From assembly GCA_043814605.1 (NCBI GenBank), contig JBDRJV010000022.1:85305-149304 (forward strand): DNA of 64,000 bases, read 5' to 3'. Below are positions 3,015-63,944 of the stretch, in pieces (positions within the stretch are counted from its first letter, which is position 1; each line of letters opens with the position of its first letter). The DNA is from Candidatus Omnitrophota bacterium. Lineage in GTDB: Bacteria > Omnitrophota > Gorgyraeia > B26-G9. The position numbers were made by a program, and so were the translations under genes. The notes below the pieces were generated by a model, which was given only the letters and a program-made list of their open reading frames with translations, was not told where the DNA came from and did not search any database.

Positions 3015-3827
3015 TTATTTTGCATTTTTACCGATATTTGAATTTATTCTTTTTCTTCTTGGCGCTATAAATGCACTTTTAGTTCCTGCATTTTCCCCTA
3101 TGGTTTTAAGCCATTTTTGATTGCACAAGAGAAGATCATCCGGAGTAGTTACATTCATATCCCATTTAACTACATCACAGACAAAAACTGGACACCCTTC
3201 TTCAATAAGCATTTGAATTGCAGTAGTAATCTCGTACTCATCACGCATTGCTGTTCTGGGAGTACATCTTATGGCATCAAAAATTGCCTGGCTAAATAAG
3301 TATATCCCACAACCTTTTAAATTCGTAGTCAAATATCGCGGTTTTTCAATAACTCTTTTTACCCTCTTGCTGTGGCCATTAAGAATAACCGTAAAGTTCT
3401 TTCTTATGGAAGATACATCTAGTTCTTTTTTTACTGCTAAAACCGCTCCGGCTTTTTCTTCTTTAAAAATTTTAATCATTTGTTTTAAATTTTTCGGAAT
3501 AATAAATATATCCCCCAGGAACAACATAAACGGACCGCTCACATATTTTTCCAGTTGCCCCACGGCATGAGCAATACCAATTTTTTCTTTTTGTTCAACA
3601 TATTTTATCTCAACACCGAAGCTGGAACCATCGCCAAAATAATTAATAATTTTTTCTTTTAAATGTCCGACTACAAATATATATTTTTTTATTCCTAAGC
3701 CGATCATAATTTCAAGCTGATATTGCATTATCGGCTTATTACAGATTGGTAAAAGCGGTTTAGGAAAATCCAAGCTTAAGGGTTTAATTCTTTCGCCTTT
3801 TCCGGCAGCTAAAATTATGCCTATCAT
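3015..3827 (-). CDS. Sugar-1-phosphate nucleotidylyltransferase (NTP_transferase family)
   Basis: MIGIILAAGKGERIKPLS...PKPLLPI signature of sugar nucleotidyltransferases. Confidence 0.8.
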   Translation of the reverse strand: MIGIILAAGKGERIKPLSLDFPKPLLPICNKPIMQYQLEIMIGLGIKKYIFVVGHLKEKIINYFGDGSSFGVEIKYVEQKEKIGIAHAVGQLEKYVSGPFMLFLGDIFIIPKNLKQMIKIFKEEKAGAVLAVKKELDVSSIRKNFTVILNGHSKRVKRVIEKPRYLTTNLKGCGIYLFSQAIFDAIRCTPRTAMRDEYEITTAIQMLIEEGCPVFVCDVVKWDMNVTTPDDLLLCNQKWLKTIGENAGTKSAFIAPRRKRINSNIGKNAK

Positions 3828-7395: not shown

Positions 7396-8412
7396 CTATT
7401 GTTTTAAGCAAATATTATCACCCTGAGTTTTAATTATCCGGGAATTAATTTTTGCTTTATATATCGCTACTATTTTTTTAAGAATAAACCGAGGCATAAT
7501 CATTGTCCCAAGGCTAAAAAACCAAAATCTAAAATTAAAAATATTCTGCCAACGGTATTTCAAAAGCATAACTATTTCACGGATAAGAAAACTATACTTT
7601 CTCGCATAGTTTCTCACCTGTACAAGTCCGATGTAATTTACGGCAACAAAATCCCTAATGCATATTTCCCTTAAGTTTTTAAATTTTTCTTCTTTAAAAA
7701 CTGTTTCAAATAAATCAATCCAGCACTGCATGGGTGATTTTTCGTAAACTTTCGGATTCTGCGACCCGCTGTATGAAAATGCCGGACAAGCCATAGTATA
7801 ATCTTTAAGCACAACGATTTTATGCTCTTTCCAGATCGCAATAAAAGGATACGTAAATTCGACAAAAGCATCCTGATTGAATGATCTGTTCATATATTTT
7901 TTTCGGAAAGCCAGTCCTGCCGGATTATCCAATAAATGTACAACCTTGATAATCAATTCCGGATCATCGTCAATCGAAACAACCAAATCCTCATCAATCG
8001 CTACTTTATCTTTTTTGCGCACCACAGTATTTACATCTTTACCATACCAATAATAAGGTCGTGTAACCGCACCAATATCATCAGACAGATTAAAAGCATT
8101 GCATGTTTTTTCTAATGCATCCTTTGATATTAAACTTTTTCCAGAAAGAAGATAGATAATATCTCCCGCTGCTCTTTCAAAACTCAGGCATAGATTCTTA
8201 TAATAGCCTAAGTTTTCTTCATTCTTAAAATATTTAATTCTCTCATCTTTAAATGACCTTACTATTTCTTGAGTATTATCCGATGAGTTGTTATCTGAAA
8301 TAACAATCTCAAAATTACTATATGTTTGAGAAAGAACATTCTTTATGGTCTGCCCCAGAAGATCTCCCATATTATAAGTCGGTACACAAACACTGAATTT
8401 TAAATTTTCCAT
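7396..8412 (-). CDS. Family 2 glycosyltransferase
   Basis: FSVCVPTYNMGDLLGQTIKNVLSQTYSNFEIVISDNNSSDNT GT2 signature. Confidence 0.8.
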   Translation of the reverse strand: MENLKFSVCVPTYNMGDLLGQTIKNVLSQTYSNFEIVISDNNSSDNTQEIVRSFKDERIKYFKNEENLGYYKNLCLSFERAAGDIIYLLSGKSLISKDALEKTCNAFNLSDDIGAVTRPYYWYGKDVNTVVRKKDKVAIDEDLVVSIDDDPELIIKVVHLLDNPAGLAFRKKYMNRSFNQDAFVEFTYPFIAIWKEHKIVVLKDYTMACPAFSYSGSQNPKVYEKSPMQCWIDLFETVFKEEKFKNLREICIRDFVAVNYIGLVQVRNYARKYSFLIREIVMLLKYRWQNIFNFRFWFFSLGTMIMPRFILKKIVAIYKAKINSRIIKTQGDNICLKQ

Positions 8413-50364: not shown

Positions 50365-51618
50365 TTAGATTCCCACTCGTTTAAAAATAATTTTAATATT
50401 ACGCAGAATATATTTAAGATCAAAACAACGCTCTATTTCTTTTTGGGTAAGAATTTTTGACAACTCCTTATCATTAAGTAAAAGGGTTTTGAAATCTTTT
50501 TTCTCTTTCCAGACTGCCAAGGCATTTCTCTGTACCAGTGCATACGACTGCTCCCGGGTAAGCCCTTTTTCGACTAAAGCAATTAAAACAGTCTGGGAAA
50601 ACATCAGGCCACGCGTTTTCTGCAAATTTTCCAGCATATTTTTCGGGTAAACAATTAATTTATCTACAAGATCAATCACTAAAGAAAGCATGTAATCGAG
50701 GATGATCGTTGAATCCGGCAAAATAATTCTCTCTACTGACGAATGCGAAATATCCCGCTCATGCCAGAGGCTGATATTTTCCATGGCTGCCAGGGCATTG
50801 CCTCTTAACACCCGGGCCAAACCCGAAATTCGTTCGCAAGTTATGGGATTGCGCTTATGCGGCATTGCGGATGAGCCTTTTTGGCCTTGAGAAAAAAATT
50901 CTTCTACTTCTAAAATTTCTGTGTGCTGTAAATTCCTTATTTCTGTTGTGAATTTTTCTAAACTTGAACCAATCAAGGCAATAGAGGTTAAAAATTCCGC
51001 GTGCCTATCTCTTTGCACAATCTGATTAGCTACAGGTTCCAGGCCAATGCCTAATTTTTTCAAAACAATTTTCTCAATTCTGGGATCGATATTAGAATAC
51101 GTTCCCACTGCTCCGGAAAGTTTACCAACGCAGACACTTTTTTTAGCATTTTCTAATCTGGTTAAATTCCGTTTTGTTTCCTCATACCAAAGGGCCATTT
51201 TCAAGCCAAAAGTTATGGGCTCTGCATGCACATTATGGGAACGGCCAGGCATGGGAGTATTTTTGTATTTTCTCGCTTTTTTCTTAAGCACATTAAGTAA
51301 AGTTTTCAGTTCGCCAATTAAAACATCACCGGCATCTTTAAGCTGTAAGGCTTGAGCGGTATCAATGGCATCATTGGAAGTTAAGCCCATATGGATAAAG
51401 CGAGAATCCGGGCCAACATTTTCTGCTACAGAGGTTAAAAAAGATATAATATCGTGTTTTGTTTTCTGCTCGATTTGGTTAATTCGTTTCAGGCTGAATT
51501 TTGCTTTTTTCTCAATGCGGGCGAGTGAAGATTTGGGAATTTTACCCAGCTGCGCCCAGGCCTGACAAACGGCAATTTCCACATCCAGCATTTTTGCCAT
51601 CGGGCAGTTTCTGTCCAT
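50365..51618 (-). CDS. purB: Adenylosuccinate lyase; N-terminal ~20 aa (MISRYTREKMGKIWTE..., ATG at 51656) lie upstream in another frame, shifted at a T5 run 51591-51595
   Basis: Annotated frame matches PurB from MLDVEIAVCQAW onward; upstream frame encodes the conserved PurB N-terminus; one extra A restores RWQKMLDVEIAVCQAW. Confidence 0.88.
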   Translation of the reverse strand: MDRNCPMAKMLDVEIAVCQAWAQLGKIPKSSLARIEKKAKFSLKRINQIEQKTKHDIISFLTSVAENVGPDSRFIHMGLTSNDAIDTAQALQLKDAGDVLIGELKTLLNVLKKKARKYKNTPMPGRSHNVHAEPITFGLKMALWYEETKRNLTRLENAKKSVCVGKLSGAVGTYSNIDPRIEKIVLKKLGIGLEPVANQIVQRDRHAEFLTSIALIGSSLEKFTTEIRNLQHTEILEVEEFFSQGQKGSSAMPHKRNPITCERISGLARVLRGNALAAMENISLWHERDISHSSVERIILPDSTIILDYMLSLVIDLVDKLIVYPKNMLENLQKTRGLMFSQTVLIALVEKGLTREQSYALVQRNALAVWKEKKDFKTLLLNDKELSKILTQKEIERCFDLKYILRNIKIIFKRVGI

Positions 51619-51699
51619 ATTTTACCCATTTTTTCACGTGTATAACGGCTAATCATAATTTTCCCCTTTTTTTATCTGATTCGCTTTTAGGAATATATA

Positions 51700-51728
51700 A
51701 TCATAGCAAATTATTCATTTTTGGTCAA
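51700..51728 (-). promoter_or_regulatory. Putative sigma70 promoter of the pur operon (TTGACC - 17 nt - TATGAT on the minus strand)
   Basis: rc of 51723-51728 is TTGACC, rc of 51700-51705 is TATGAT, 17-nt spacer, ~40 nt upstream of the purB ATG at 51656. Confidence 0.45.
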
Positions 51729-51747
51729 ATAATTTAATATAGTAAAA

Positions 51748-51776
51748 AAGACCTAAAATTTATAATCTTAGGTCTT
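51748..51776. terminator. Intrinsic terminator (9-bp stem AAGACCTAA/TTAGGTCTT, 11-nt loop, U-run on the minus strand) after the giant gene
   Basis: Perfect 9-bp inverted repeat followed by TTTTTT in minus-strand sense. Confidence 0.55.
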
Positions 51777-51809
51777 TATTTTATTAATACAATAAATATA
51801 TAAAAATAT

Positions 51810-54800
51810 CTATATTGCCTGACTTATTAAAGAAACCGGGCTTTTATTAAATCCTAATGTTTGCCTAATTGATTTAATGCTGACTTTTGGTAATTTAGAT
51901 ATTAATCTTTGGGCTAAAGTTGTACTTTTTAATTGATGGCTGTTTTTTAATAAAAGGGATATTGCTTTATTCACAACATCCTGATTCTGAGCCTGGGCAG
52001 CAATATTTCTAAATATTGACAATCTTCTATCCGGGAAAGAGTTCTCATATAAAATATCCAGCATAGATAAAGCCTCTCTACTTGATAAATTTGCCCTGAT
52101 TATATTTTTTGCCGCAGCACGGTTTCTGTTGTTTAAAATTGCCAGTGCTGTTTTTGCCATGGCAACAAGGTTTTTCCTGTCCTTATCTAAACTTTGAGTT
52201 TCGATAATACCCTTTAAAACTTTTTTATACGATTTTAATTTCATTTTCGCCGCTGTATAAAACAAAACCCTGAGTGCTGATTCTCTGCCTTGACCTAAAC
52301 AATCTCCTAATAGTTCTCCAAATTTTACCCATTGTTCATGGTTAAAATCACTTTTTTTAAATTGCGCCAGTATAAAAACACTTTCCTCTAAATTCGCGAT
52401 TTGATAAGAATCAAGAAGCAATTGAATACTTTCTGAATTTGGATATGAAGATACTGCTTGCAAATATTTTTGGGTTGTACTCCAGGAGTACTTCATAGAA
52501 AACTTTTTAACATTAAAATATTTAGTAAGGATTTTAAACCCGTGAGCACAAATGTTTTCGTTTTTTTGTAAAATATTAAAAATCTCTTCATCATAACTAA
52601 GTTTTCTATAACTATCGCTTAAGTACTGCTCAATTAGTTTCAACCCTACTTGTGCTTTATAATCTTTTTGCTGCTGTTTTAAATAATTCTCATGCGCAAT
52701 TACCAGTTTAATAACAGTTGTTCTTATCCATTCTTTTTCTGTCATAAAATAAGCTGCATCATCAAACCTCTGCAGGCAATATTCTAAAAAACTTTGTTTT
52801 GTCAGCAACAGTTTTTTTACCCAAGGGTGTACACCAAAACCGCCCCGGTCTAAATCTCCGCCGTAAAACATCCCGTTCCAGGCATCTAAAGACCCGGTCT
52901 GCATTATTGCCAGCCCTTTACCTGCGCCTAAACTGGCAAACATGTAGTCAGAAATTTTTTCCTGATCAGTTTTAAGTATACCCTGTAAAAAATTTCTTAT
53001 TCGATAAAATAATCCACCCTGCTCCGAGTCACCATTTACTAAATATTTTGCGGCAAGTTTTCCTAATGTTTCATTAGCATACCCGCCTAATTCGGATAGA
53101 TACCCATTGCTGCTTATACTGGCAATCCTGCTCCAGGCTAAAATATTTTCATATATAGGCAATTTCGGCTTTCGCTGAACTTCTCCTAAGCTGGCAATCA
53201 ACCTGGCCGCAAGCAATATTTCAAATCTTTGTTCTGTAAGGTTAGAATTAGGCTGCATTATTTGGCTAAAGCGGCTGTTAATGTTTTTTATTATTAATGC
53301 GTAAGTATTTTTGCCGGCTAATCTGCCGATCATCTGAAAATATTTAACTAATTTATGATACTCGCTAAAACTGCTTGTCTTAAATAATTTCGCTAGTTTA
53401 TCCTTATCTTCCCTATTTACCTCAAATTCTGTAATAAATTCATTTAATAAATTTTGCGCAAACTTATCCTGTTTATTTATTAATTCCTTTTTTTGCGCCT
53501 CGGTTGATTGATTATAAACTTCTTGCAAAAATTCAAAATACTGTTCATCAATTTTACCTTGAGCAAATTTATTCAGGACAAAATTAACAACATTTTCAGA
53601 TAAACTATCCGTATCTCTTACCTGCGGCCATTGGACATTAAAACCTTTGGCAGAATTAAGCGCATTATAAAGCACACTCAAAATATTCTTTCCCGCTCTT
53701 TCCGGAGAATAAAACTGCCCGTTACTTGCTGGAAATTCTTCACTAAGGTTATTTTCGAGTTTCTTCTGCGCTCCCAGAATATTCTCAGAATCAGGCAACC
53801 TGGGAATTTCTATCAGATATTCCGGCTGAGTTAAAACATAATCAAAAACTTTTTCTGATAATTCACTAAACTGTATGTTCGCTTCCTTTTGAATCCTTTG
53901 ATCTAAAAAAATCATCTGGAATGCAATTCTGGTCTTAAAAAACTCATATCTTGAATTATTAAAATCAGAAAACATCATTTTTATTATTGGATTTACTCCC
54001 CCATTAAATATTCCATACTTGTACGGATCCTGGTTTAACTCAAAAAATATTTGTTCTACATTATCAAGATAAACAGTATAATCACGGCTGTATGCATTTC
54101 TTAACAAAATATCGTATAAACTTTCTTTGTGATCTCTGTGGATGAGATCAAATCCACAAATTAATTTAGTAGTTAAGGCCCGGTCATGACTACTATGCCT
54201 TTTATAGGCAATTTCAATTATACTTTTTAAAAAAGTCAGTTTTTCTTGATCATAAAAATATACAGAGTTTTGTAGCTGTTGAATTGCGTATAGAGCATGG
54301 TTTCTTGCCTCCGAGATATTACTTTCCTCTAGCGCATATTTTATAAGCCAATTCATTGCCGCTTCTATCGGTTCATTTGTTTTCTTTTTACTTAAATCAT
54401 AAAAATGTTTTTCCTCTTGCATTTTTCCCAATAAACGTATTGTACTCTCTTTTTTAATCAGTTCTTCTATCTCTCCGTCGATGGGAAAAATCGCCTTACT
54501 AAACATGTCCGCTGTGGTATCTTTAAATTTATTCTGATACACTCTTTCTAAGATGTCATCTATTTCTAAAACAAGTTCTTTTGCTTGGTTATCCCCGGCT
54601 CTTACACAATCATATTTAATTTTCAGTAAAAAGGCATACGCTATTTTTACATATAAAGGAGCGCCCCATTTCAAAAAATTCTCAAACACAAAAAATAACT
54701 CTGCATCCGGCTCCATATGAGAAATCATAACCAATGCAGAAAGATTAGTATATTTTTTATCTTCCTGTATAACTTTTTTAATTTTATTTTTGAGTTTAGA

Positions 54801-57023
54801 ATTTTTATGGGAATTATTAGCTAAGAATTCAATCAGGGAAAAATTAAAGCGGTGAATATCCCTCATCAGATCATCAATAATATTGCTTTCAACTATAAGC
54901 TCAGCTGCATTTTTTGAAAGTCCTGTTTTTTCTAAAATATTGGCATATAAATCATAGAAATACGTAATTTTTTCTTCTGTCAGAACGCTGGTAATTTTTT
55001 CTGACACCCGGGGTTTTAGTTCATCCGGGATATCACACTCTGATAAAAGCTCTAAAGCAACCATTAATCTTTCTGAATTATGTCCGTTAATTTGTTTTGT
55101 CGCTTGAGAAAGAATATATTCCACGGATTTAACTCTATCTTCAGCTGTACCCACTTTATTCAAAACATAATTTGCTGCAATCTTAACCACCATATTTTCC
55201 GGTAAATCATCTGTATCTAAATAAGGCTGGATTAATAAACGGATAAAACCTTTTTCTTTTTCTGTTCTCTGGGAGAAATTTAAAAGCGAAACAATCTGCC
55301 CCGCACGGACTTCGGGAGTAATTTTCCCATCCCGAACCGCTAAAATATTATCCATTGCCTCTTGGCTGGCTGGGGTTATGAAAATGTTCGTCAAATCAGC
55401 TGCTTTGGCTAACTGCATAAAAGATTTTTTTACTCTCCAGTTATAATTATTATCCTTTAATAAACATTTAAACAAAGCCACTGTTGCTGCATAACTGCAG
55501 GGTGTATTTTGGTCAGCTTTTTCAGCTAAAATAAGTAATAATTCATCATTAAAATATAAAGAACCTTCTACCTGTTCCATCGCGCGTAGAGCCACTTTTG
55601 GATCATTTGCAGTAATCATTTTTTTGAGGGAATTAACCTTATCAGGGGACAACATACTCACACTTGTAATTAAGGCAGGTGAAGGAAAATTCTCCAAAGA
55701 TAAATTCGCTTTTCTTATATCTGAATCCTTCTCATATTGCTGTAAAAAATTATTTACAACTTCCCAGTTTTCAACTTTTCCGTTTTTATATATCTTTTCA
55801 ATTCCGTAGAAAATTAAATAATGATACCTAGCCTCAAGTTCTTTTACCCGCATGAGTAACGAATCAATTGCTGAATAAACCTGGGCATCGCCAATAAATT
55901 GTAAAAGAAAATAATTTCTGATTATCTGGATAACGTTATTTGTCTGTTGAGCTTTGATCTCTGTTTTAAATTTGGCTAAAAAAGCTCTGGCTAATGATTT
56001 GTGCAGCCTCCATCTTTCTTCATTCTCATCAATACTTTCTTTCTTAAGTGTTTTAAGTTGCCAAATTACGCTAAAAGACGGCTTCATATTGCCTAAAAAT
56101 ATCACATAAAAAGCCGGCTCCATAACTTTTCTGGCGATCTTCTGTAAAAACTTATGTTTGTTGGCATTTACAGCCAGCATTTCAATTAATTCAAAACGGT
56201 CTGGTCCCAAAAGATGTGTATCCATAAATAATCGGTCATATAATTTTGCCGCTTTTATAGTTAGTCCGGTTTTTTTTAGAATTTTAGAACAGCCTCTAAC
56301 GCCTTTACCAATTCCTTTAACCTGTACTTGAGCAATGCGAAAAGATAAATCCTCTTGCATATTTACCGGTATCTCGCATTGAGCTAGCAATTTTATAGCC
56401 AGATTAATATTTTCAAGACTGTATTCATTGACCTTAAGCTCAGCTGCCTGTAAAAGTTTAGTTACGGATGTGATTTTTTCTTCGGCATTACCCATCCAGT
56501 TTAGTACATAATTTGCAGCGATTCTTTCCGGCATGCTCATCGAATCCAATAAGGGAGTAATTAATAACCGTAAAACCTCTTTTTCATGTTCTGTTTCAAC
56601 TTTTATTTCAGCCAGGGCTGTAATAATTCCGGCTCTGACCATAGGTGTTTGTGCTTGTTTTGTATTTTTTAAAAATTTCCCAAATAATTCTGCGTGGTCC
56701 TGGGTAACAAAAAATTCAATAAGCTTATCTGCTGCCTGGGGAAATAATTTTTTAAATAAAAGGGGTAGATTTTTACCCATAAAATTTTTTCCTATTAATT
56801 CGGAGGAATTCACCTGGCTAATTTTATTTAGGACATCAATGCCCTCTTTTAAATATGCTTGTTGAATATCTGCTAATTTCAGCGAAATATGCGGCGATAA
56901 TGTTGTTTTTTGTTCTGGTTTATTATTCAGAGTTTGGGCAATTAAGCTTGAGGAAAAACCAGTTAAAATAAATGATGGGATCAGCATTAAGGAAATCAAT
57001 TTGAAAAATATTCTCTTACGCAT
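51810..57023 (-). CDS. Giant (1737 aa) secreted alpha-helical repeat protein of unknown function with a large internal duplication
   Basis: N-terminal signal peptide (KLISLMLIPSFILTGFSSSLIAQ); K/E/L-rich helical composition; residues ~130-230 and ~580-680 are clearly homologous (VRAGIITALAEIKVETEHEKEVLRLLITPLLD... vs VRAGQIVSLLNFSQRTEKEKGFIRLLIQPYLD...). Confidence 0.6.
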   Translation of the reverse strand: MRKRIFFKLISLMLIPSFILTGFSSSLIAQTLNNKPEQKTTLSPHISLKLADIQQAYLKEGIDVLNKISQVNSSELIGKNFMGKNLPLLFKKLFPQAADKLIEFFVTQDHAELFGKFLKNTKQAQTPMVRAGIITALAEIKVETEHEKEVLRLLITPLLDSMSMPERIAANYVLNWMGNAEEKITSVTKLLQAAELKVNEYSLENINLAIKLLAQCEIPVNMQEDLSFRIAQVQVKGIGKGVRGCSKILKKTGLTIKAAKLYDRLFMDTHLLGPDRFELIEMLAVNANKHKFLQKIARKVMEPAFYVIFLGNMKPSFSVIWQLKTLKKESIDENEERWRLHKSLARAFLAKFKTEIKAQQTNNVIQIIRNYFLLQFIGDAQVYSAIDSLLMRVKELEARYHYLIFYGIEKIYKNGKVENWEVVNNFLQQYEKDSDIRKANLSLENFPSPALITSVSMLSPDKVNSLKKMITANDPKVALRAMEQVEGSLYFNDELLLILAEKADQNTPCSYAATVALFKCLLKDNNYNWRVKKSFMQLAKAADLTNIFITPASQEAMDNILAVRDGKITPEVRAGQIVSLLNFSQRTEKEKGFIRLLIQPYLDTDDLPENMVVKIAANYVLNKVGTAEDRVKSVEYILSQATKQINGHNSERLMVALELLSECDIPDELKPRVSEKITSVLTEEKITYFYDLYANILEKTGLSKNAAELIVESNIIDDLMRDIHRFNFSLIEFLANNSHKNSKLKNKIKKVIQEDKKYTNLSALVMISHMEPDAELFFVFENFLKWGAPLYVKIAYAFLLKIKYDCVRAGDNQAKELVLEIDDILERVYQNKFKDTTADMFSKAIFPIDGEIEELIKKESTIRLLGKMQEEKHFYDLSKKKTNEPIEAAMNWLIKYALEESNISEARNHALYAIQQLQNSVYFYDQEKLTFLKSIIEIAYKRHSSHDRALTTKLICGFDLIHRDHKESLYDILLRNAYSRDYTVYLDNVEQIFFELNQDPYKYGIFNGGVNPIIKMMFSDFNNSRYEFFKTRIAFQMIFLDQRIQKEANIQFSELSEKVFDYVLTQPEYLIEIPRLPDSENILGAQKKLENNLSEEFPASNGQFYSPERAGKNILSVLYNALNSAKGFNVQWPQVRDTDSLSENVVNFVLNKFAQGKIDEQYFEFLQEVYNQSTEAQKKELINKQDKFAQNLLNEFITEFEVNREDKDKLAKLFKTSSFSEYHKLVKYFQMIGRLAGKNTYALIIKNINSRFSQIMQPNSNLTEQRFEILLAARLIASLGEVQRKPKLPIYENILAWSRIASISSNGYLSELGGYANETLGKLAAKYLVNGDSEQGGLFYRIRNFLQGILKTDQEKISDYMFASLGAGKGLAIMQTGSLDAWNGMFYGGDLDRGGFGVHPWVKKLLLTKQSFLEYCLQRFDDAAYFMTEKEWIRTTVIKLVIAHENYLKQQQKDYKAQVGLKLIEQYLSDSYRKLSYDEEIFNILQKNENICAHGFKILTKYFNVKKFSMKYSWSTTQKYLQAVSSYPNSESIQLLLDSYQIANLEESVFILAQFKKSDFNHEQWVKFGELLGDCLGQGRESALRVLFYTAAKMKLKSYKKVLKGIIETQSLDKDRKNLVAMAKTALAILNNRNRAAAKNIIRANLSSREALSMLDILYENSFPDRRLSIFRNIAAQAQNQDVVNKAISLLLKNSHQLKSTTLAQRLISKLPKVSIKSIRQTLGFNKSPVSLISQAI

Positions 57024-57282
57024 AAGATAACTCCTTTATTCTGTTATTAAAAATAATTTAAAAAGTTTAAAAAGAACAAAGAAGTATACCATAAGATATA
57101 AATATTAGCAAATTTTTTTAAAAATATAACATATTGTAATAAAATGAGTTATGATTTGATTTAATCGGCTGGTTTTGAGAAACTTCGTGGGGACCCCTCG
57201 GCCTAACGGCCGGGGCTTCCTCTTTTTGCGAACAATCCCTATTTATCTCTGTGCTTTAGCCCGGAGATTTCCAAAAAGGGGA

Positions 57283-58413
57283 TTAAATATTATTAAAAAG
57301 CAACTTGCTTTTATTAATCGAAAGAAATTTTTTCTGCCAAAAATCGCAGAAATTTTGCCAAATTTCCGAGTTCACCTGGTCTTTAATGGATTTTATGGAT
57401 GCTAATATTTTAAGCACAGCATCAATATTATTTTCCTGCCAAAAAATCTGAGCCTGTGTATCCAAATAATAGAATTGTTTGGCTGTTTGAAATTCTAGAG
57501 CCTTGTTAACATAATTATGCGCCTGATCCAGGTTTCCCTGTTTTAAATACACAAAAGCCAGATTATTATAAGCATCAGCAAAATTTTTATCTAATGCTAA
57601 TGCCTTTAAATATATTTCTTCTGCTTTTCCGTAAGATTCCTGTTTTAAATAAATATTTCCTAAATTAAAAAACACTTCTGCTTTTTTTTCATTTGATGCC
57701 TCAAAACTAACCAGCTGATTATAATATTGAATGGCTTGATCATCTTGCTGATTTTTCTCAAGCCAAAGCGCTAACTCAAAATAATCTTCCTTTTTAAAAT
57801 CATGCGGTATTTTATCCAAGGGAATAATCTCCAGCATCCAATTTCCCGCCGCATACCAATTCCTCAAAAACCCCTGGTAACTGCGTTTGTTAAAAGCATG
57901 TTTTCCATCATGCTGAAAAATTATTTTTTTCTCATCGTCAAAACCCACAATTATTACATAATGCCGTTTATTAAAAATATAGGGATGCAATTTTTCAATA
58001 GCTATCACCGGAATCCCGGATTTTAACCTGGTTTTGACCTGCTTAAAATCAGCAGAATATCCTTTGGCCCAAAATCCCTGCTCTTTAGCATATTGTTCCA
58101 GGTCAATATTTAATACGCCGCAAAGTTCCGGATAAAAAATGCGTTCGGCTATTTTTTCCTGGCTATGATCCGGCTTCTGATCCTGGCACCAATAATTAAA
58201 AACCGCCGCCAGAGCTGCCGGGCCGCAATAAGATTCTTTTTGTTTGATAAAAGGAACATTTAGTAAAACTTTTAAGTCTTCAATATAAAAATTTTGGGAA
58301 TAATTTTCCGGATGAGTTTTCCGACAAAGGCTGCAGCCAGATAAAAGCAGTAAAAATATTAACAGGAGAACAATCTGTTCTCCTGTTAAAAATTTTTTAA
58401 ACATTCTCAGCAT
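57283..58413 (-). CDS. Lipoprotein with papain-like C39-type cysteine peptidase domain (PA2778-like) followed by TPR repeats
   Basis: Signal peptide plus lipobox LLSGC; ESYCGPAALAAVFNYW catalytic Cys motif, HYVIIVGFD His; C-terminal TPR-like repeats (AEVFFNLGNIYLKQESYGKAEEIYLKALALD, ADAYNNLAFVYLKQGNLDQA). Confidence 0.7.
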   Translation of the reverse strand: MLRMFKKFLTGEQIVLLLIFLLLLSGCSLCRKTHPENYSQNFYIEDLKVLLNVPFIKQKESYCGPAALAAVFNYWCQDQKPDHSQEKIAERIFYPELCGVLNIDLEQYAKEQGFWAKGYSADFKQVKTRLKSGIPVIAIEKLHPYIFNKRHYVIIVGFDDEKKIIFQHDGKHAFNKRSYQGFLRNWYAAGNWMLEIIPLDKIPHDFKKEDYFELALWLEKNQQDDQAIQYYNQLVSFEASNEKKAEVFFNLGNIYLKQESYGKAEEIYLKALALDKNFADAYNNLAFVYLKQGNLDQAHNYVNKALEFQTAKQFYYLDTQAQIFWQENNIDAVLKILASIKSIKDQVNSEIWQNFCDFWQKKFLSINKSKLLFNNI

Positions 58414-58535
58414 AAAATTAAAAACTCTACATTGATTTTATCCCGCACGCTTTAAAAATATCCCTTTAGAGCAAAGGAATGAAAGCTGATCTGCGGGATT
58501 CCGCTCAAAACCCCGGGCTTTATCCCGGGTGAGCT

Positions 58536-58940
58536 TCATTTACGGCGGGGTTGCAGTTTAAACCCGTAATCCGCAAAATAAAGCACACACATTGCCACAA
58601 GTAAAATTACCAAGAGCACTGTAATCCCTGAATTTCCAGCAGATTCAATTGTTTCAATACGTGCGGCTAAATTCTGTATTTGCCCGCTGTCTAATTGAGA
58701 AATATATTCTGCTGTCGCTTCTGGGGTTAAGCCCATTTTAGATAATTTTTTCTGGATAATTTCTTGATTAAGAAAACTTTGAATTTTCTCAGCATAAAGG
58801 CTCTGAGTGGATGTTGACTGCAGCGTAATTTGGGAATCAACAGGCATTGCCAAGCAATTGCCCGGTGAAATTCCGCAAAGCACAGCTAAGGTAAGCATTA
58901 ACTTTAAAATCCCTTTTCTTTTCAATAATGCTCCAAGCAT
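58536..58940 (-). CDS. Small exported protein with N-terminal signal peptide and C-terminal TM anchor (PA2779-like partner of the C39-like peptidase)
   Basis: 134 aa; strong GGAGG SD; hydrophobic N-terminus and C-terminal ITVLLVILLVAMCVLYF helix. Confidence 0.5.
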   Translation of the reverse strand: MLGALLKRKGILKLMLTLAVLCGISPGNCLAMPVDSQITLQSTSTQSLYAEKIQSFLNQEIIQKKLSKMGLTPEATAEYISQLDSGQIQNLAARIETIESAGNSGITVLLVILLVAMCVLYFADYGFKLQPRRK

Positions 58941-59156
58941 ATTCTTCCTCCTCTGGTTAAAGAATACATTATTTCTTAAAGATTAATAACCTATCTCAAA
59001 TTATTTCTTTTTACCCGCAGCTTTTCTCAGCTTAATAATAACACATTTTAAAAAAATTAGTCAATAAACATTTTTCCATTATTTTTAACATATATTTTAA
59101 TAAAAATAGACGCTAAAAATTAAAATAATTTATTTTATCTAATGATTCCCCCAAAT

Positions 59157-60836
59157 TTATTCAAACTGTTTAAAATGTATAATATTATGATCCTGTAAAA
59201 TATATTTCAATAATGTTTTCAAAATCCCTAGGCCGTAGATAATTGCCGGCCACAATTTTATACTGGAGGCTTCATCAAAATAACGCGTACGAATCGGGAT
59301 TTCTTCTATCTTGCAATAATTTATTATTGCCTGAACAATAATTTCAAAATCAAAAACAAAACTATCAGCATTATCATTAAATTTAACATTTTTCAAAAAT
59401 TGCGCACTATAAGCCCTAAAGCCGGAATGATATTCACTCAGATAAGTTTTAAGAATTACATTCGATAATGCGGTCAAGAGAATATTCACATTATGTTTCC
59501 AAAGCGGCATGCCTCCGATTAAAGCCCCTCCTTTGAGCATCCGGGATCCAAAAACAGCATCTGCCTGACCGGATTGAATCGGCGCGATTAAATCCGGGAC
59601 AACCCGCGGATCATACTGATAATCAGGGTGAATCATCACTACAATATCCGCCCCTAATTCCAGAGCTTTCTTATAACACGTTTTTTGATTAGCCCCATAT
59701 CCCTGATTTCTTTTATGCACATAAGTTTTAATGCCTAATTCTTTTGCAATTAAAACAGTCGCATCTGTACTCGCATCATCAACTAAAATAATTTCATCCG
59801 TAATATCTTTGGGGATATCATCATACGTTGCTTTTAATGTCTTTGCGGCATTATAAGCCGGAAGCACTACAACAGTCTTCATTTTTTTCCTTATATCCTG
59901 CGAATCAGTTTCCAGTTCACTCAGATACTCTAAAGACCGGCGTTTAACAGCAAAGACCTCTATCTGATCCCTAAAATTTATATTGATTAGCAATTTTTCC
60001 AACCCGCTTATCCGGCTAAAAAACCGCAAAATAAGGTAAATAATTTTACTGTAAGGCCTGGTTCTTTCCAGCCAATATTTGCCGGAAAAACTGCGTGCAT
60101 ATAAACCCCACCGGCAGCTTTTAAAACCCGCTGCATCCAGTAATTTATTCAAAGTTTTTTTAGAAAAATAAAATAAATGATGCTGATTAATCCCCCACCA
60201 CTTTGCCCGCAGCAAGCGGCTGGCTATGCTTTCGATATCCGGGGTATTGATATAAACAACTCCGCGGGGTTTTAAGATTCTTCTGATTTCAATCAAAAGG
60301 TTTCGCGGATCTAAAATATGCTCGATTGTATCATGCAACACAATAACATCATAAAAATTACCCGGTAGTTTTGCTTGCTTTAGTGTTGTCGGCTTCACTT
60401 CTAAACCAAGTTTATCTCGCGCAAATTGTACTGCCCAACGAGAAAGCTCAACCCCGGAAACTTCCCAGCCTTTTTTTCTGGCTTCATCCAGAAAAAACCC
60501 CGTACTACACCCCACATCTAATAAAGCGCTGCCTCTTTTTTTATATATTTCTAGTTTCTTAAGAACTAACCGCGCTGTTCTTCTTCTGCCTGATTCCTCT
60601 TCCAGATATTTTTCATCAATCATTTCCTGGTACTGAGTCAATATTTTATCCGCATTTTCTCCCTGCGGGACAAAAACCAAGCCGCAAGTTACACACTTAA
60701 TTATTTTTTCCGGAGGAATTAAATTTTCTTCTGTAATTAAATACGAATTTTTATTGTCTAAATTTGTCTTTTTCTTTGATCTATACACAATAATATAATG
60801 CTTTGATCCGCATAAATTACAAATTATCTCTTGCAT
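59157..60836 (-). CDS. Fusion: N-terminal Zn-ribbon plus class I SAM-dependent methyltransferase, C-terminal family 2 glycosyltransferase (polyprenyl-phosphate sugar synthase-like)
   Basis: CNLCGS...CVTCG; LLDVGCSTGFFLDEARKKGWEVSGVELS (MTase motif I); VVVLPAYNAAKTLKATYDDIP...LVDDASTDAT (GT2). Confidence 0.8.
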   Translation of the reverse strand: MQEIICNLCGSKHYIIVYRSKKKTNLDNKNSYLITEENLIPPEKIIKCVTCGLVFVPQGENADKILTQYQEMIDEKYLEEESGRRRTARLVLKKLEIYKKRGSALLDVGCSTGFFLDEARKKGWEVSGVELSRWAVQFARDKLGLEVKPTTLKQAKLPGNFYDVIVLHDTIEHILDPRNLLIEIRRILKPRGVVYINTPDIESIASRLLRAKWWGINQHHLFYFSKKTLNKLLDAAGFKSCRWGLYARSFSGKYWLERTRPYSKIIYLILRFFSRISGLEKLLININFRDQIEVFAVKRRSLEYLSELETDSQDIRKKMKTVVVLPAYNAAKTLKATYDDIPKDITDEIILVDDASTDATVLIAKELGIKTYVHKRNQGYGANQKTCYKKALELGADIVVMIHPDYQYDPRVVPDLIAPIQSGQADAVFGSRMLKGGALIGGMPLWKHNVNILLTALSNVILKTYLSEYHSGFRAYSAQFLKNVKFNDNADSFVFDFEIIVQAIINYCKIEEIPIRTRYFDEASSIKLWPAIIYGLGILKTLLKYILQDHNIIHFKQFE

Positions 60837-62811
60837 CAGTTAACCTCAATTTTTTATTTAAAATAGTTAATTCATCATCCGCCGGATTATCCGACTCAAA
60901 ATCATCTCGATAAAAAGGAATTACTTCCTGATCATCACCCGTTACTAAACTAATATTCACACTATATTCGCTTTCCTTAATATTATCAGGAACAAATAAA
61001 GAATAATATTCTTGAACAATAATACCCTGCCCCCAGGCATAAGTAGGAAATATTCTATAGCATAAAGGCCTTATCGTCTTATAACAAAGCTGCCCTTCCT
61101 TATTTTTAATTGTAATAATCATTTTGTAATCACTCTGAATTTTCTCCAAAGCTTTCCAGAAAAACATTAGTTCAATTTTTTGCCCTCCCGGGATATTCAT
61201 TGTCTTTAATTCTTGATAGCCCAGAAACATCAGCCCCTCTTTTGTCTGGGCTTCTCTTAAAGAAACCGCTGAATCCTGAGGCATATTTCTTAAAACTTTA
61301 AAAAGCCTTTGTTTGTTTTTATGTCCGTTTTTTAAAAGCAAAATATTATCCAGTGTTTCTACAATTCCCCATTTATTTGATTTAAAAAAATTAACCATGT
61401 TTGCCTCAGACCTTCCCTTACGATAAAAAGCATTCATCCCGATAGGATCGTTGACATCCAGCAACGCATATTCAATATTTTCCGGTAAAACATACGGCTT
61501 GTAAGAGAGAGTATGAAATCCATTGACCACATAGTGAAATGAATATAATTCTTTCCGATTAGATAGTTGAGGTAAAAAATTAAAGGTAGCAATTACGCTT
61601 GCTGTTTGCGGAATCATCTTTACAAAATTTTCCTTTTGATCATCGAATAGATCACGGTTTGTTTTATTTTTATTAAAAATTATTTCAACAAAAGGGCCAA
61701 AACTGACTGCACAAGTAAAACTGGCGGTGATTAAAAATATTCCGATAATTTCAAAACGTATATTTTTCTTTATCCAGGGAAAGTTCAATAATCTTTTTAT
61801 GCCATAAATCGCCGAGATGAAAATAAACGGCAGCATCTCTGCATCATAATGATATTCAATCAGATATTCAGCCAATCGCGTTGAGAGTAAATGCTGCAGA
61901 AAAACTAAACCTAAAATTAAAATGCGTCCGTCTAGTAGTGAAAAAAAACATACCGGGGCAAATAATTTAAACAGAAACTGGAGCTTTTCCGGGGTAAAAA
62001 TTATATTAATTACCTTTAAAGGATGCATTATAATAAACCCCGTAATTTCCGGTAAAGAATTGCCTAAATGCCGATATATTGTTGAAAATTGAATTGTATC
62101 TTTGTTAAAATGCGGTATCAATATTCCTACCGTAAACAAAAACCAAAATCCGCCTGATAATAGGGGCACTAGCCACCATTTTAAACTTCGTTTTTTGCAA
62201 GCTGCAAAGATACCAAAAGGTATAATTATTAGCGCGATATTTTCCTGAGAAAGCAAGGCCAGCCACATGAATAAAACAAAAATTCTAAATTTATGCTTTA
62301 TAAAAAAATAAAACATAAACGTTAAAAAAGCTGTTGAAAAAACCGTCACATGGAACTCATATAATGCTGTATAGCCCATTGCCGGATAAAGCAAATACGC
62401 AATAACTACAAATAATCCTATCTGCCCATTAAGTTCATCCCGCGCAATTAAAAAAAGCGGATAAGCGGTTAAAGCCAGAAAAAATATTTGCAGAAATACT
62501 AAAGTCAGCGGGCTTTGCAGAAAAATATATAAAGGTGCAAATAAAAATAAAATGAGATGTGCGTGGTGGCCTAAAAAATTTACACCTAGGATAGAAGTAA
62601 AGGAAGAGCCGTGCACAATATTCCAAAGAATATGATTATACGCAGCTAAATCCATATCCAGATAATCAAAACAATAATAGCGGCGAAAACACACAAAGCT
62701 CAATATGCCGGCATAAATACCTATCAAGCTGAAAACAATCCAATCGTAAATATTAATCTTTTTTTGTGTAGACTTCACAAGTTCCATGTGTTTTTTTAAT
62801 TGTGCCCTCAT
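60817..62811 (-). CDS. Large polytopic membrane protein, DUF2079/GT-C-like putative glycosyltransferase, with C-terminal soluble domain
   Basis: 664 aa, >10 TM helices in first ~430 aa, 20-bp overlap with downstream MTase-GT2 gene. Confidence 0.5.
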   Translation of the reverse strand: MRAQLKKHMELVKSTQKKINIYDWIVFSLIGIYAGILSFVCFRRYYCFDYLDMDLAAYNHILWNIVHGSSFTSILGVNFLGHHAHLILFLFAPLYIFLQSPLTLVFLQIFFLALTAYPLFLIARDELNGQIGLFVVIAYLLYPAMGYTALYEFHVTVFSTAFLTFMFYFFIKHKFRIFVLFMWLALLSQENIALIIIPFGIFAACKKRSLKWWLVPLLSGGFWFLFTVGILIPHFNKDTIQFSTIYRHLGNSLPEITGFIIMHPLKVINIIFTPEKLQFLFKLFAPVCFFSLLDGRILILGLVFLQHLLSTRLAEYLIEYHYDAEMLPFIFISAIYGIKRLLNFPWIKKNIRFEIIGIFLITASFTCAVSFGPFVEIIFNKNKTNRDLFDDQKENFVKMIPQTASVIATFNFLPQLSNRKELYSFHYVVNGFHTLSYKPYVLPENIEYALLDVNDPIGMNAFYRKGRSEANMVNFFKSNKWGIVETLDNILLLKNGHKNKQRLFKVLRNMPQDSAVSLREAQTKEGLMFLGYQELKTMNIPGGQKIELMFFWKALEKIQSDYKMIITIKNKEGQLCYKTIRPLCYRIFPTYAWGQGIIVQEYYSLFVPDNIKESEYSVNISLVTGDDQEVIPFYRDDFESDNPADDELTILNKKLRLTDARDNL

Positions 62812-63155: not shown

Positions 63156-63944
63156 TTAAATTGATCTCTCCAGCAACTCCGAAAAATTTATTTCAGATAA
63201 AAGTTTTAATTTTTTTTGCCTTTGCAACTTAAAGTTCATTTTACCGGATAATAATTGCAAAGGATCAGAGAAATCTGCCTTACGAAATTGTTCATCATAA
63301 AATCTCGTTACATCGCGCGGCAATTGTAAAAAACTTACGTGTAAGTGTGCAATTCCTAAAGAAAACCCTTCCCCAATTATATGCTCACGTATTTCTTCCG
63401 TCCCGATCAAACCTATTACTTGAGACTTATTAAGCCACATCCCTACTTCTAACCCGATTGGCTCGGTATGCGCATAAGCACTGACCAATTGCTTTTCCAG
63501 AAAACGATCGGTATGGCGAACAAAAATTGTATTACCAGAAATAGCCGCAACTATTCCATCAGCGATTACACTAACCGGAATTCCGAACCCTATTTTTTTA
63601 ACTCTACTATCAACAGTTAAATACACCCCTAAATCAATCCCCGAATGACTTTTATCCCTCTTCCCATTATTCATAACTTTGCCTTTGCGAAAATACCAAT
63701 TTTTTGTAGTATCATACAAGGCTCCTTCCGGCAATATCCAGGATTGAAAATCATTTGGTAAATTTTCTTCTAATATCACCGGGCCGGCATTTCTCATTAC
63801 TGTTTGCCAATCCTGGGCAAAAAAGAATGCAGAATCTGCGGCAACTTGCGGTTCCTGATAATAATCAGCAAAATATTTCCGGTAAGAAAAATTAAAGATA
63901 AAAGTCTCTGCATAATTTGTTTTCTGCCCCTTAAGAAAATTCAA
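63156..63944 (-). CDS. M23-family (LytM-domain) metallopeptidase
   Basis: HSGIDLGV (HxxxD) and GIAHLHVSF (HxH) motifs. Confidence 0.75.
   Translation of the reverse strand: MNFLKGQKTNYAETFIFNFSYRKYFADYYQEPQVAADSAFFFAQDWQTVMRNAGPVILEENLPNDFQSWILPEGALYDTTKNWYFRKGKVMNNGKRDKSHSGIDLGVYLTVDSRVKKIGFGIPVSVIADGIVAAISGNTIFVRHTDRFLEKQLVSAYAHTEPIGLEVGMWLNKSQVIGLIGTEEIREHIIGEGFSLGIAHLHVSFLQLPRDVTRFYDEQFRKADFSDPLQLLSGKMNFKLQRQKKLKLLSEINFSELLERSI

Follow-up and report, generated by a model that had tools for sequence, protein, structure and literature searches.

We examined a 64,000-nucleotide (nt) stretch of contig JBDRJV010000022.1 from the Candidatus Omnitrophota bacterium assembly GCA_043814605.1, referred to here as the window, in which three adjacent minus-strand genes encode predicted envelope proteins. 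We denote them g1 (58536–58940, 134 amino acids (aa)), g2 (57283–58413, 376 aa) and g3 (51810–57023, 1737 aa). We estimate at about 70% the probability that the interval is a conserved bicistronic envelope module, g1–g2, in which the g2 peptidase may act on its g1 partner, with an independently acquired, lineage-specific g3 beside it. With the pair, a further representative joins a known, functionally uncharacterised family named after the Pseudomonas aeruginosa PAO1 loci PA2778 and PA2779, whereas the family of g3 is rare, restricted to the phylum and ordinary in its solenoid fold. A first-pass annotation of the sequence had located the same three co-directional open reading frames (ORFs), all of which we recovered, and had read them as a single operon and one system in which a dedicated cysteine peptidase processes or anchors g3.

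Conservation of the g1–g2 pair next to purB

The contigs of the g2 homologues and 20 further species-representative loci were compared, tabulated by tblastn. In 19 distinct Omnitrophota loci, g1, g2 and purB (then purL and other genes) were contiguous and g3 was absent from that site; purB showed 55–82% and g2 31–48% identity to the window copies, with a g2–purB gap of about 80–530 nt. Three further loci ended, at a contig or locus end, before purB could appear. When g3 was searched for by tblastn (E < 1e-3), neither the 67 loci nor the rest of the window gave a match. Since g3 is missing between g2 and purB in the 19 loci, we consider it an extra gene between the conserved pair and purB, and this lack of co-occurrence in related genomes, which the first-pass annotation had itself listed as grounds for refutation, contradicts the reading of the three genes as one conserved system. 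The order within the pair was constant, with a g2-type gene immediately downstream of a PA2779-family gene in the window, in 20 Omnitrophota loci and in Azoarcus; the gap between the two was typically 5–60 nt in the Omnitrophota relatives, compared with 122 nt in the window.

The Azoarcus pair is carried by megaplasmid pAZKH of Azoarcus sp. KH32C (Betaproteobacteria), where, in the RefSeq annotation, a gene of the PA2779 family precedes one of the PA2778 family. The two are separated by 1 nt, have unrelated neighbours (an EAL protein and a Na+/H+ antiporter) and are accompanied by no g3-like protein. The peptidase ORF shows the lipobox LAAC and the motifs QEDYQCGPAAL and WHYAVAVGYD. The RefSeq coding sequence of 248 aa begins downstream of the catalytic Cys, whereas the ORF starting from the GTG at 7875 (locus L079, 7875–8804) encodes 309 aa and adds the lipobox and QCGPAAL; the RefSeq start has therefore probably been placed too far downstream.

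Spacing and transcription signals were examined in the window. The 122-nt g1–g2 gap and the 259-nt g2–g3 gap both contain a stable GC-rich hairpin. The hairpin in the first gap (58512–58529, minus strand; CCCGGG..CCCGGG, then UUUU; −19.7 kcal/mol, z = −2.0) may act as an attenuator. The other one, right after the g2 stop codon and without a U-tract (57196–57217, minus; −21.7 kcal/mol, z = −2.3), is probably the 3′ end of the g1–g2 unit; it is the sole intergenic GC-rich island of its kind in the window, and comparison across the window ruled out that the GC-rich hairpins are a repeated element. The g2–g3 gap also contains a promoter-like site for g3 predicted by a consensus scan (57083–57111, minus; TTGCTA / 17 nt / TG-TATACT). 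Given gaps of this length, the hairpins and the promoter-like site of g3, one operon for all three genes is not supported.

The same type of scan predicted a promoter-like site for g1 (59035–59064, minus; TTGACT / 18 nt / TG-TATTAT), with 10/12 matches and an extended −10 TG. Of the strong Shine-Dalgarno sequences attributed to all three genes, those of g1 (GAGGAGG) and g3 (AAGGAG) were found, whereas g2 has no recognisable one. The clear terminator reported after g3 is indeed a canonical intrinsic terminator, with a 14-bp stem and U6 (51747–51777, minus; fold z = −3.56). Downstream of it lies the purB promoter (51700–51728, minus; TTGACC / 17 nt / TG-TATGAT), identified by the scan together with an alignment of the g2–purB spacers of six relatives; this promoter block is kept in the g2–purB spacers of the relatives. 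An Rfam search of the gaps gave no match. We also looked for direct repeats flanking g3 in the window and found none, so the window holds no DNA footprint of an insertion, unlike locus L069 described below.

The alternative of a dedicated g1–g2–g3 system supposes that the lipoprotein g2, with its C39 and tetratricopeptide repeat (TPR) domains, processes or anchors g3 in the way a periplasmic protease acts on a giant adhesin. The genes are adjacent and co-directional in the window, g2 and g3 are both predicted to be periplasmic or exported, and C39 domains occurring in cis on much larger Omnitrophota giants have been proposed as cleavers of these proteins (bioRxiv 10.1101/2023.11.21.568195). 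Nevertheless, we consider this system highly improbable. Besides the 19 related loci without g3 at the same site and the Azoarcus pair without any g3-like protein, the relatives of g3 never lie beside a pair, and in the metagenome-assembled genome (MAG) GCA_023136735.1 the pair adjoining purB (L015) and two g3 relatives (L069 and L072) are on three separate contigs. The 259-nt gap with its stable hairpin and separate promoter-like site further argues against it. Moreover, g3 has no conserved Gly-Gly site: its Gly-rich patch GGDLDRGGFGVHPW aligns to VGFDSLYYVTDHPY in P0087, the only relative spanning the region, and is not conserved. The same patch had been singled out as the one possible catalytic motif of g3, and we rejected it as such because it is unconserved in P0087.

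The PA2778-family peptidase and its PA2779-family partner

The protein encoded by g2 scored 160.4 bits against the NCBIfam model C39_PA2778_fam (NF033920; cut-off 150), covering model positions 2–253 of 255, and g1 scored 57.7 bits against PA2779_fam (NF033919; cut-off 40). As both exceed the curated cut-offs, the statement in the first-pass annotation that the two genes resemble the PA2778/PA2779 pair was correct. In Pfam, g2 matched Peptidase_C39_2 (63.2 bits), Peptidase_C39 (PF03412; 34.7 bits, gathering threshold (GA) 22) and TPR families, and g1 matched DUF6627 (PF20332; 32.6 bits, GA 27). The lipobox, C39-type Cys/His dyad and TPRs described earlier for g2 are all present. In an alignment of 13 homologues, G26 and C27 of the lipobox LLLSG-C27 are nearly invariant and Q58, C63 and H151 are invariant, with the same motifs in the Azoarcus ORF. 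The TPRs occupy about residues 205–345, and their conserved residues are those of the generic TPR consensus.

A PDB sequence search with the peptidase domain of g2 gave no match, and when the whole g2 alignment was used instead, TPR proteins swamped the results. No ABC transporter was found nearby, the neighbours of g2 being a DUF2079 gene, a methyltransferase-GT2 fusion, g1, g3 and purB. The PADLOC anti-phage models detected nothing relevant and gave no match to g1 or g3; weak matches were confined to g2, to a TPR model (E = 0.0023) and to a PrimPol model on residues 231–353 of the TPR region (E = 0.0014). The pair had been described as having no assigned function, and the literature that we searched likewise yielded no functional study of it; PA2779 was mentioned only once, as a hypothetical protein next to bswR (PMC3985676).

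In the g1 protein, a signal peptide (..CLA|MP) is followed by about 65 aa of helical periplasmic sequence and by an SAGNSG patch next to the membrane; a transmembrane helix then leads to a cytoplasmic tail, YFADYGFKLQPRRK. Hydropathy peaks fall at residues 14–32 and 97–129. The A-x-A|MP site and the transmembrane helix are kept across the 21 g1 homologues of one alignment (another alignment took 7). The cytoplasmic tail is conserved in the Omnitrophota partners as LYFTDY..K[LV]EPR, whereas the Azoarcus partner has no such tail and ends at the transmembrane helix.

A somewhat different organisation was observed in a Thermodesulfovibrionales MAG (L027, 6397–7408), at which two separate lipoprotein genes supply the C39-like domain (174 aa) and the TPR part (154 aa). 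These have no PA2779-like partner and lie directly upstream of PilB-N/PilT-like genes; the arrangement may be related but distinct.

g3 as a rare helical solenoid

The g3 protein carries a signal peptide of the signal peptidase I type (..SLIA|QT), with predicted cleavage at A29|Q30, and structure predictions gave an all-helical protein, in agreement with its earlier description as secreted and almost wholly helical. The internal duplication noted in it is real: BLASTP of the two halves aligned residues 126–355 (55959–56648, minus) with residues 569–805 (54609–55319, minus) at 35% identity (E = 3e-29) and an offset of about 443 aa, and the unit alignment places the two copies of the repeat unit on the same residues. 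A C-terminal domain (residues 1183–1737; 51813–53477, minus) was delimited by homology to P0087 (27% identity over 575 columns, E = 6e-46).

Above threshold, g3 matched neither a Pfam nor an NCBIfam family. HEAT_2 (PF13646; GA 27.7) appeared below threshold in g3 (14.5 bits) and in its relatives P0086 (21.9 bits) and P0087 (23.3 bits). An AlphaFold model of the repeat unit, built with the alignment, had a mean predicted local distance difference test score (pLDDT) of 68, with 75–95 in the core, and Foldseek with this model returned only generic HEAT/ARM solenoids (PP2A A subunit, beta-catenin, importins; best E = 7e-3, TM 0.2–0.4). The sole PDB match of the unit profile was a weak one to designed alphaRep HEAT repeats at the ..VR.AAnYvLnkiG.. 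motif. A single-sequence AlphaFold model of residues 1–1001 had a pLDDT of 39.6 and was discarded. The HEAT/ARM-like character suggested by the first-pass annotation therefore holds at the level of generic fold similarity, at which g3 is predicted to be a secreted helical solenoid, most likely a periplasmic or surface binding scaffold.

Relatives of g3 are few. An indexed homology search with g3 alone or with the g3-family alignment gave the self-match only, and when 1.84 billion representative proteins were searched exhaustively by HMMER with residues 538–1737, no more than seven relatives came up. A metagenome scan with a four-sequence alignment of the unit found one 2-kb contig. All named relatives are from Omnitrophota MAGs, except one from a bin labelled Paceibacterota. 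The repeat unit occurs once or twice per protein, with the core ..RAG.I..L....TEKEK..IR.LI.PYL......LAA.YVLNK.G..EEK..SV..LL....LAL.LL..CEIPDE.K..VS...ILKKTGLSKKA... P0086, P0093 and P0097 are encoded upstream of HAD-hflX-hrcA-grpE-dnaK, and P0088 after recJ, in a 4.1-kb insert between 234-bp direct duplications of the recJ 3′ end; none of the loci of the relatives is near a PA2779/PA2778 pair. g3 is thus a rare, lineage-specific accessory gene that is mobile or of fast turnover.

The insert at the recJ locus (L069) contains P0088 with its 628-nt upstream region. The flanking duplicates (3197–3430 and 7525–7758) are 89.7% identical at the nucleotide level and 95% at the protein level, and the order of the P0088 gene followed by an 85-aa recJ fragment recurs in three independent assemblies. 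The structure looks like a Campbell-type or site-specific integration regenerating the recJ 3′ end.

Proteins sharing the termini of g3

Two short terminal motifs are common to g3, its relatives and proteins with unrelated bodies. The N-terminal motif, [T/N]-L-[S/A]-P-x-[I/L]-x-[L/I]-N...[L/I]-[K/Q]-x-x-[F/Y], lies some 8–14 residues past the A-x-A site of the signal peptide; in g3 it is TLSPHISL (T41–L48; 56880–56903, minus), about 12 residues past the cleavage site in a 10-member N-terminal alignment. At the extreme C-terminus is a tail, [LIVM][LIVM]-x-[QRKL]-[AS]-Ile, exemplified by LISQAI, LIEQAI, LVEQAI, LLERSI and LIDKAI; the LISQAI of g3 (51813–51830, minus) aligned end to end with the tail of P0087. 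The strict form, [LIVM][LIVM]x[QRK][AS]I, was found in 7 of 429 distinct ORFs, where 0.05 were expected. NCBIfam and Pfam models gave no match to the terminal motifs of g3. The bodies between the termini include HEAT solenoids, an aminotransferase class V (237 bits), a methyltransferase joined to NAD(P)HX dehydratase, APH kinase and cytidylyltransferase, and PEMT with a methyltransferase. These proteins apparently form an undescribed Omnitrophota class, whose members we located in the window (51810–57023 and 63156–63944) and at loci L002 (1086–9376), L016 (55–7463), L068 (6213–13480) and L069 (4058–7450). The multi-enzyme bodies depend on cofactors of the cytoplasm, an unexpected trait in proteins exported through Sec.

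At the site upstream of HAD-hflX-hrcA, the genome determines whether a 526-aa allele (L072, 662–2242) or a 1159-aa allele (L068, 10001–13480) is present. The two are 66% identical across the first 519 residues, and the short one ends in ..LIASAI. As the short allele keeps the tail, the sequences suggest that selection may act on it. Such termini on otherwise unrelated large proteins hint at a dedicated targeting signal, in a phylum that is uncultivated, possibly predatory and of current interest for its long secreted proteins.

The second class member of the window (63156–63944, minus) is a 262-aa M23/LytM-like ORF (HSGIDL..AHLHV) that matched Pfam Peptidase_M23 with 23 bits, below the GA of 28.7. 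It ends in the class tail, ..SELLERSI, has neither a signal peptide nor the N-terminal motif, and is without a homologue in the related loci. The distance to the pair is 4 kb, and the ORF lies just upstream of the block formed by the DUF2079 gene, the methyltransferase-GT2 gene, g1 and g2.

One could suppose that the PA2778-family peptidase serves this whole class in trans. The N-terminal motif and the tail would then define an export or sorting class, the TPRs would bind the tail -[LIVM][LIVM]-x-[QRK]-[AS]-I-COOH, the C39 domain would process the members, and g1 would be a membrane adaptor or regulator, with g3 just one of many substrates. Recognition of the tail would account for the repeated presence of class genes within about 5 kb of the pair, observed at three loci: in the window (g3 downstream, the M23-like ORF upstream), in L002 (three class genes directly upstream, gaps 64–193 nt) and in L016 (two upstream). 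The tail is non-random by the count given above and is kept in the 526-aa allele, and there are familiar cases of TPR domains binding the extreme C-terminus of a peptide (PEX5 with PTS1, Hop with EEVD), which counts for the idea. We still find it improbable, since at about 17 of the roughly 20 pair loci the surrounding 10 kb lack any class member, while class loci found independently of the pair (L068, L069, L072, L075 and L076) have no pair nearby. In addition, the pair exists in Azoarcus, a proteobacterium in which no such class was seen, and the conserved TPR residues of g2 follow the generic consensus.

A possible action of g2 on g1

For the conserved pair itself we prefer a model in which the peptidase acts on its small partner. 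g2 is predicted to be a periplasm-facing lipoprotein that combines a peptide-binding TPR domain with the papain-like C39-type active site (Q58/C63/H151). g1 is predicted to be Sec-exported and held in the inner membrane by its C-terminal helix, which also places its helical segment of about 65 aa in the periplasm. g2 would then cut g1 at an [A/G]-[G/S] motif (A101–G102), after an amphipathic helix and immediately before the membrane anchor, stripping the anchor and freeing the periplasmic peptide of g1. g3 is outside this module and is predicted to be exported through Sec as a HEAT/ARM-like solenoid, made of a duplicated unit of about 230–450 aa and a C-terminal domain, under its own promoter-like site, Shine-Dalgarno sequence and terminator.

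The cut is placed at this motif because the juxtamembrane [A/G][G/S] pair of small residues is conserved both among 21 Omnitrophota partners and in the Azoarcus one. It reads ..IESAG|NSG in the g1 of the window, ..KAGGDAGG and ..KVGGGAGG in deep Omnitrophota branches and ..SMPAGG|N in Azoarcus. An amphipathic helix precedes it, and in both phyla positions −5, −8, −12 and −15 are hydrophobic. In bacteriocin leaders, what C39 domains recognise is a helix with Gly-Gly after it, and the logic of the proposed cut would parallel this. By analogy and from these sequence features, we give cleavage of PA2779 by PA2778 at the juxtamembrane motif a chance of roughly one in three.

Several considerations weigh against our reading of the interval. 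Canonical double-glycine leaders have hydrophobic residues at −4/−7, so the −5/−8 register of the C-proximal motif of g1 is one position off, and the NCBIfam HMMs for double-glycine leaders matched neither g1 nor g3. A Gly/Ala/Ser patch beside a transmembrane helix also fits a plain flexible linker. Regarding the independence of g3, about 20 loci carry the pair and 3 of them have class genes close by, a count that may be due to chance but leaves some probability, if a low one, for a functional link in trans. As for when g3 arrived, the best purB identity among the sampled relatives is 82%, so that no close relative of this genome is among them.

The peptidase may instead hydrolyse the envelope or cell wall, or act as a general peptidase of the periplasm, with its substrate elsewhere and the PA2779-family protein as its membrane-bound inhibitor, anchor or activator; we regard this as doubtful, though less so than the other alternatives. 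The best Pfam peptidase match of g2 is to Peptidase_C39_2, which several papers catalogue among phage endolysin or cell-wall lytic domains, whereas the Pfam scan found no peptidoglycan-binding domain in g2. The conserved cytoplasmic tail of g1 suggests more than a disposable anchor, but since the Azoarcus partner lacks it, it is not required family-wide, and the [A/G][G/S] motif is the one anchor-adjacent feature conserved across phyla. g1 and g2 also evolve fast (50–62% and 42–48% identity, compared with 82% for purB and 71–76% for the methyltransferase-GT2 gene), as interacting partners often do.

Genes surrounding the pair

Upstream of g1, the window encodes a DUF2079 membrane protein and the methyltransferase-GT2 fusion (59157–62811), which overlap by 20 nt. 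About half of the loci (L004, L006, L008, L009 and L013–L015) keep this block immediately before the pair, with 57–62% identity to the window copy for the DUF2079 protein. By the identities given above, g1 and g2 diverge much faster than the two genes of this block or purB.

On the other side, purB on the minus strand shows an apparent 1-nt deletion in an A-run at about 51592–51596. As a result its conserved start ATG at 51656, MISRYTREKMGKIWTETARWQK, is out of frame with the remaining ORF (..MLDVEIAVCQAW..), whereas purB of the relatives reads MIARYTREKMGAIWSETAKWQKMLDVEIAV in a single frame; the frameshift is probably a homopolymer assembly error. Farther downstream, several Omnitrophota (L001–L006, e.g. 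L002 15616–17451) have a gene for a GAF-GGDEF diguanylate cyclase between purL and purQ, inside their purine biosynthesis cluster.

Comparison with known systems

Among described systems, the Omnitrophota giants (West-Roberts et al. 2023, and a 2026 preprint on 176 complete genomes) come from the same phylum as g3. These preprints describe signal peptides at the N-terminus, HEAT scaffolding, multi-enzyme bodies and, for giants longer than 10 thousand aa (kaa), C39 domains in cis (bioRxiv 10.1101/2023.11.21.568195; 10.64898/2026.06.07.730766). Signal peptides and multi-enzyme fusions are also found in the shared-termini class, whereas g3 is 1.7 kaa long rather than >10–30 kaa and has no transmembrane bundle, SecA or C39 domain in cis. 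Term searches of the two preprints returned neither the PA2778/PA2779 pair nor the shared terminal motifs. With HEAT/ARM solenoids (PP2A A subunit, beta-catenin, importins and the PBS-lyase-type HEAT of alphaRep), g3 shares its all-helical repeats; it differs in being exported by a signal peptide and in its unit of about 230 aa, which is much longer than one HEAT repeat, and no match to these solenoids was significant.

The LapG–LapA system resembles the interval in that a gene for a periplasmic cysteine peptidase lies beside one for a large exported protein, which holds in this window only, as the g2–g3 adjacency is not conserved. g2 has no LapG-type Pfam match, and Pfam and NCBIfam revealed no adhesin, RTX or type I secretion features in g3. 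Overall, g3 is a misleading neighbour and no guide to the function of the pair.

C-terminal sorting systems (sortase/LPXTG, exosortase/PEP-CTERM and rhombosortase/GlyGly-CTERM) recall g1 in their short motif, transmembrane helix and basic tail, with a Cys/His enzyme encoded next door. Unlike the enzymes of these systems, g2 is a lipoprotein of papain-like C39 fold with one dedicated partner rather than many substrates, and to our knowledge no transpeptidation acceptor is known for the pair; the likeness is a resemblance only. The C39 bacteriocin peptidases of the ComA and PCAT1 type share the papain-like Gln/Cys/His set with g2 (34.7 bits to PF03412, as above) and the candidate motif of g1 is a Gly-Gly-like pair after an amphipathic helix. 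However, g2 is a stand-alone periplasmic lipoprotein with TPRs rather than the cytoplasmic N-terminal domain of an ABC exporter, and the candidate site in g1 is near the C-terminus, where it adjoins the membrane anchor, instead of belonging to an N-terminal leader.

The closest counterpart is the PA2778/PA2779 pair (NF033920/NF033919) itself. The window pair agrees with it in its scores, in the gene order with the small partner first, in the lipoprotein signal, in the Q/C/H set and C-terminal TPRs of the peptidase, and in the signal peptide and C-terminal transmembrane helix of the partner. The Omnitrophota partners have an additional conserved cytoplasmic tail, absent in Azoarcus, and nothing essential differs. 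The pair thus occurs in more than one phylum (Pseudomonas, Azoarcus and Omnitrophota), now with a testable hypothesis of cleavage.

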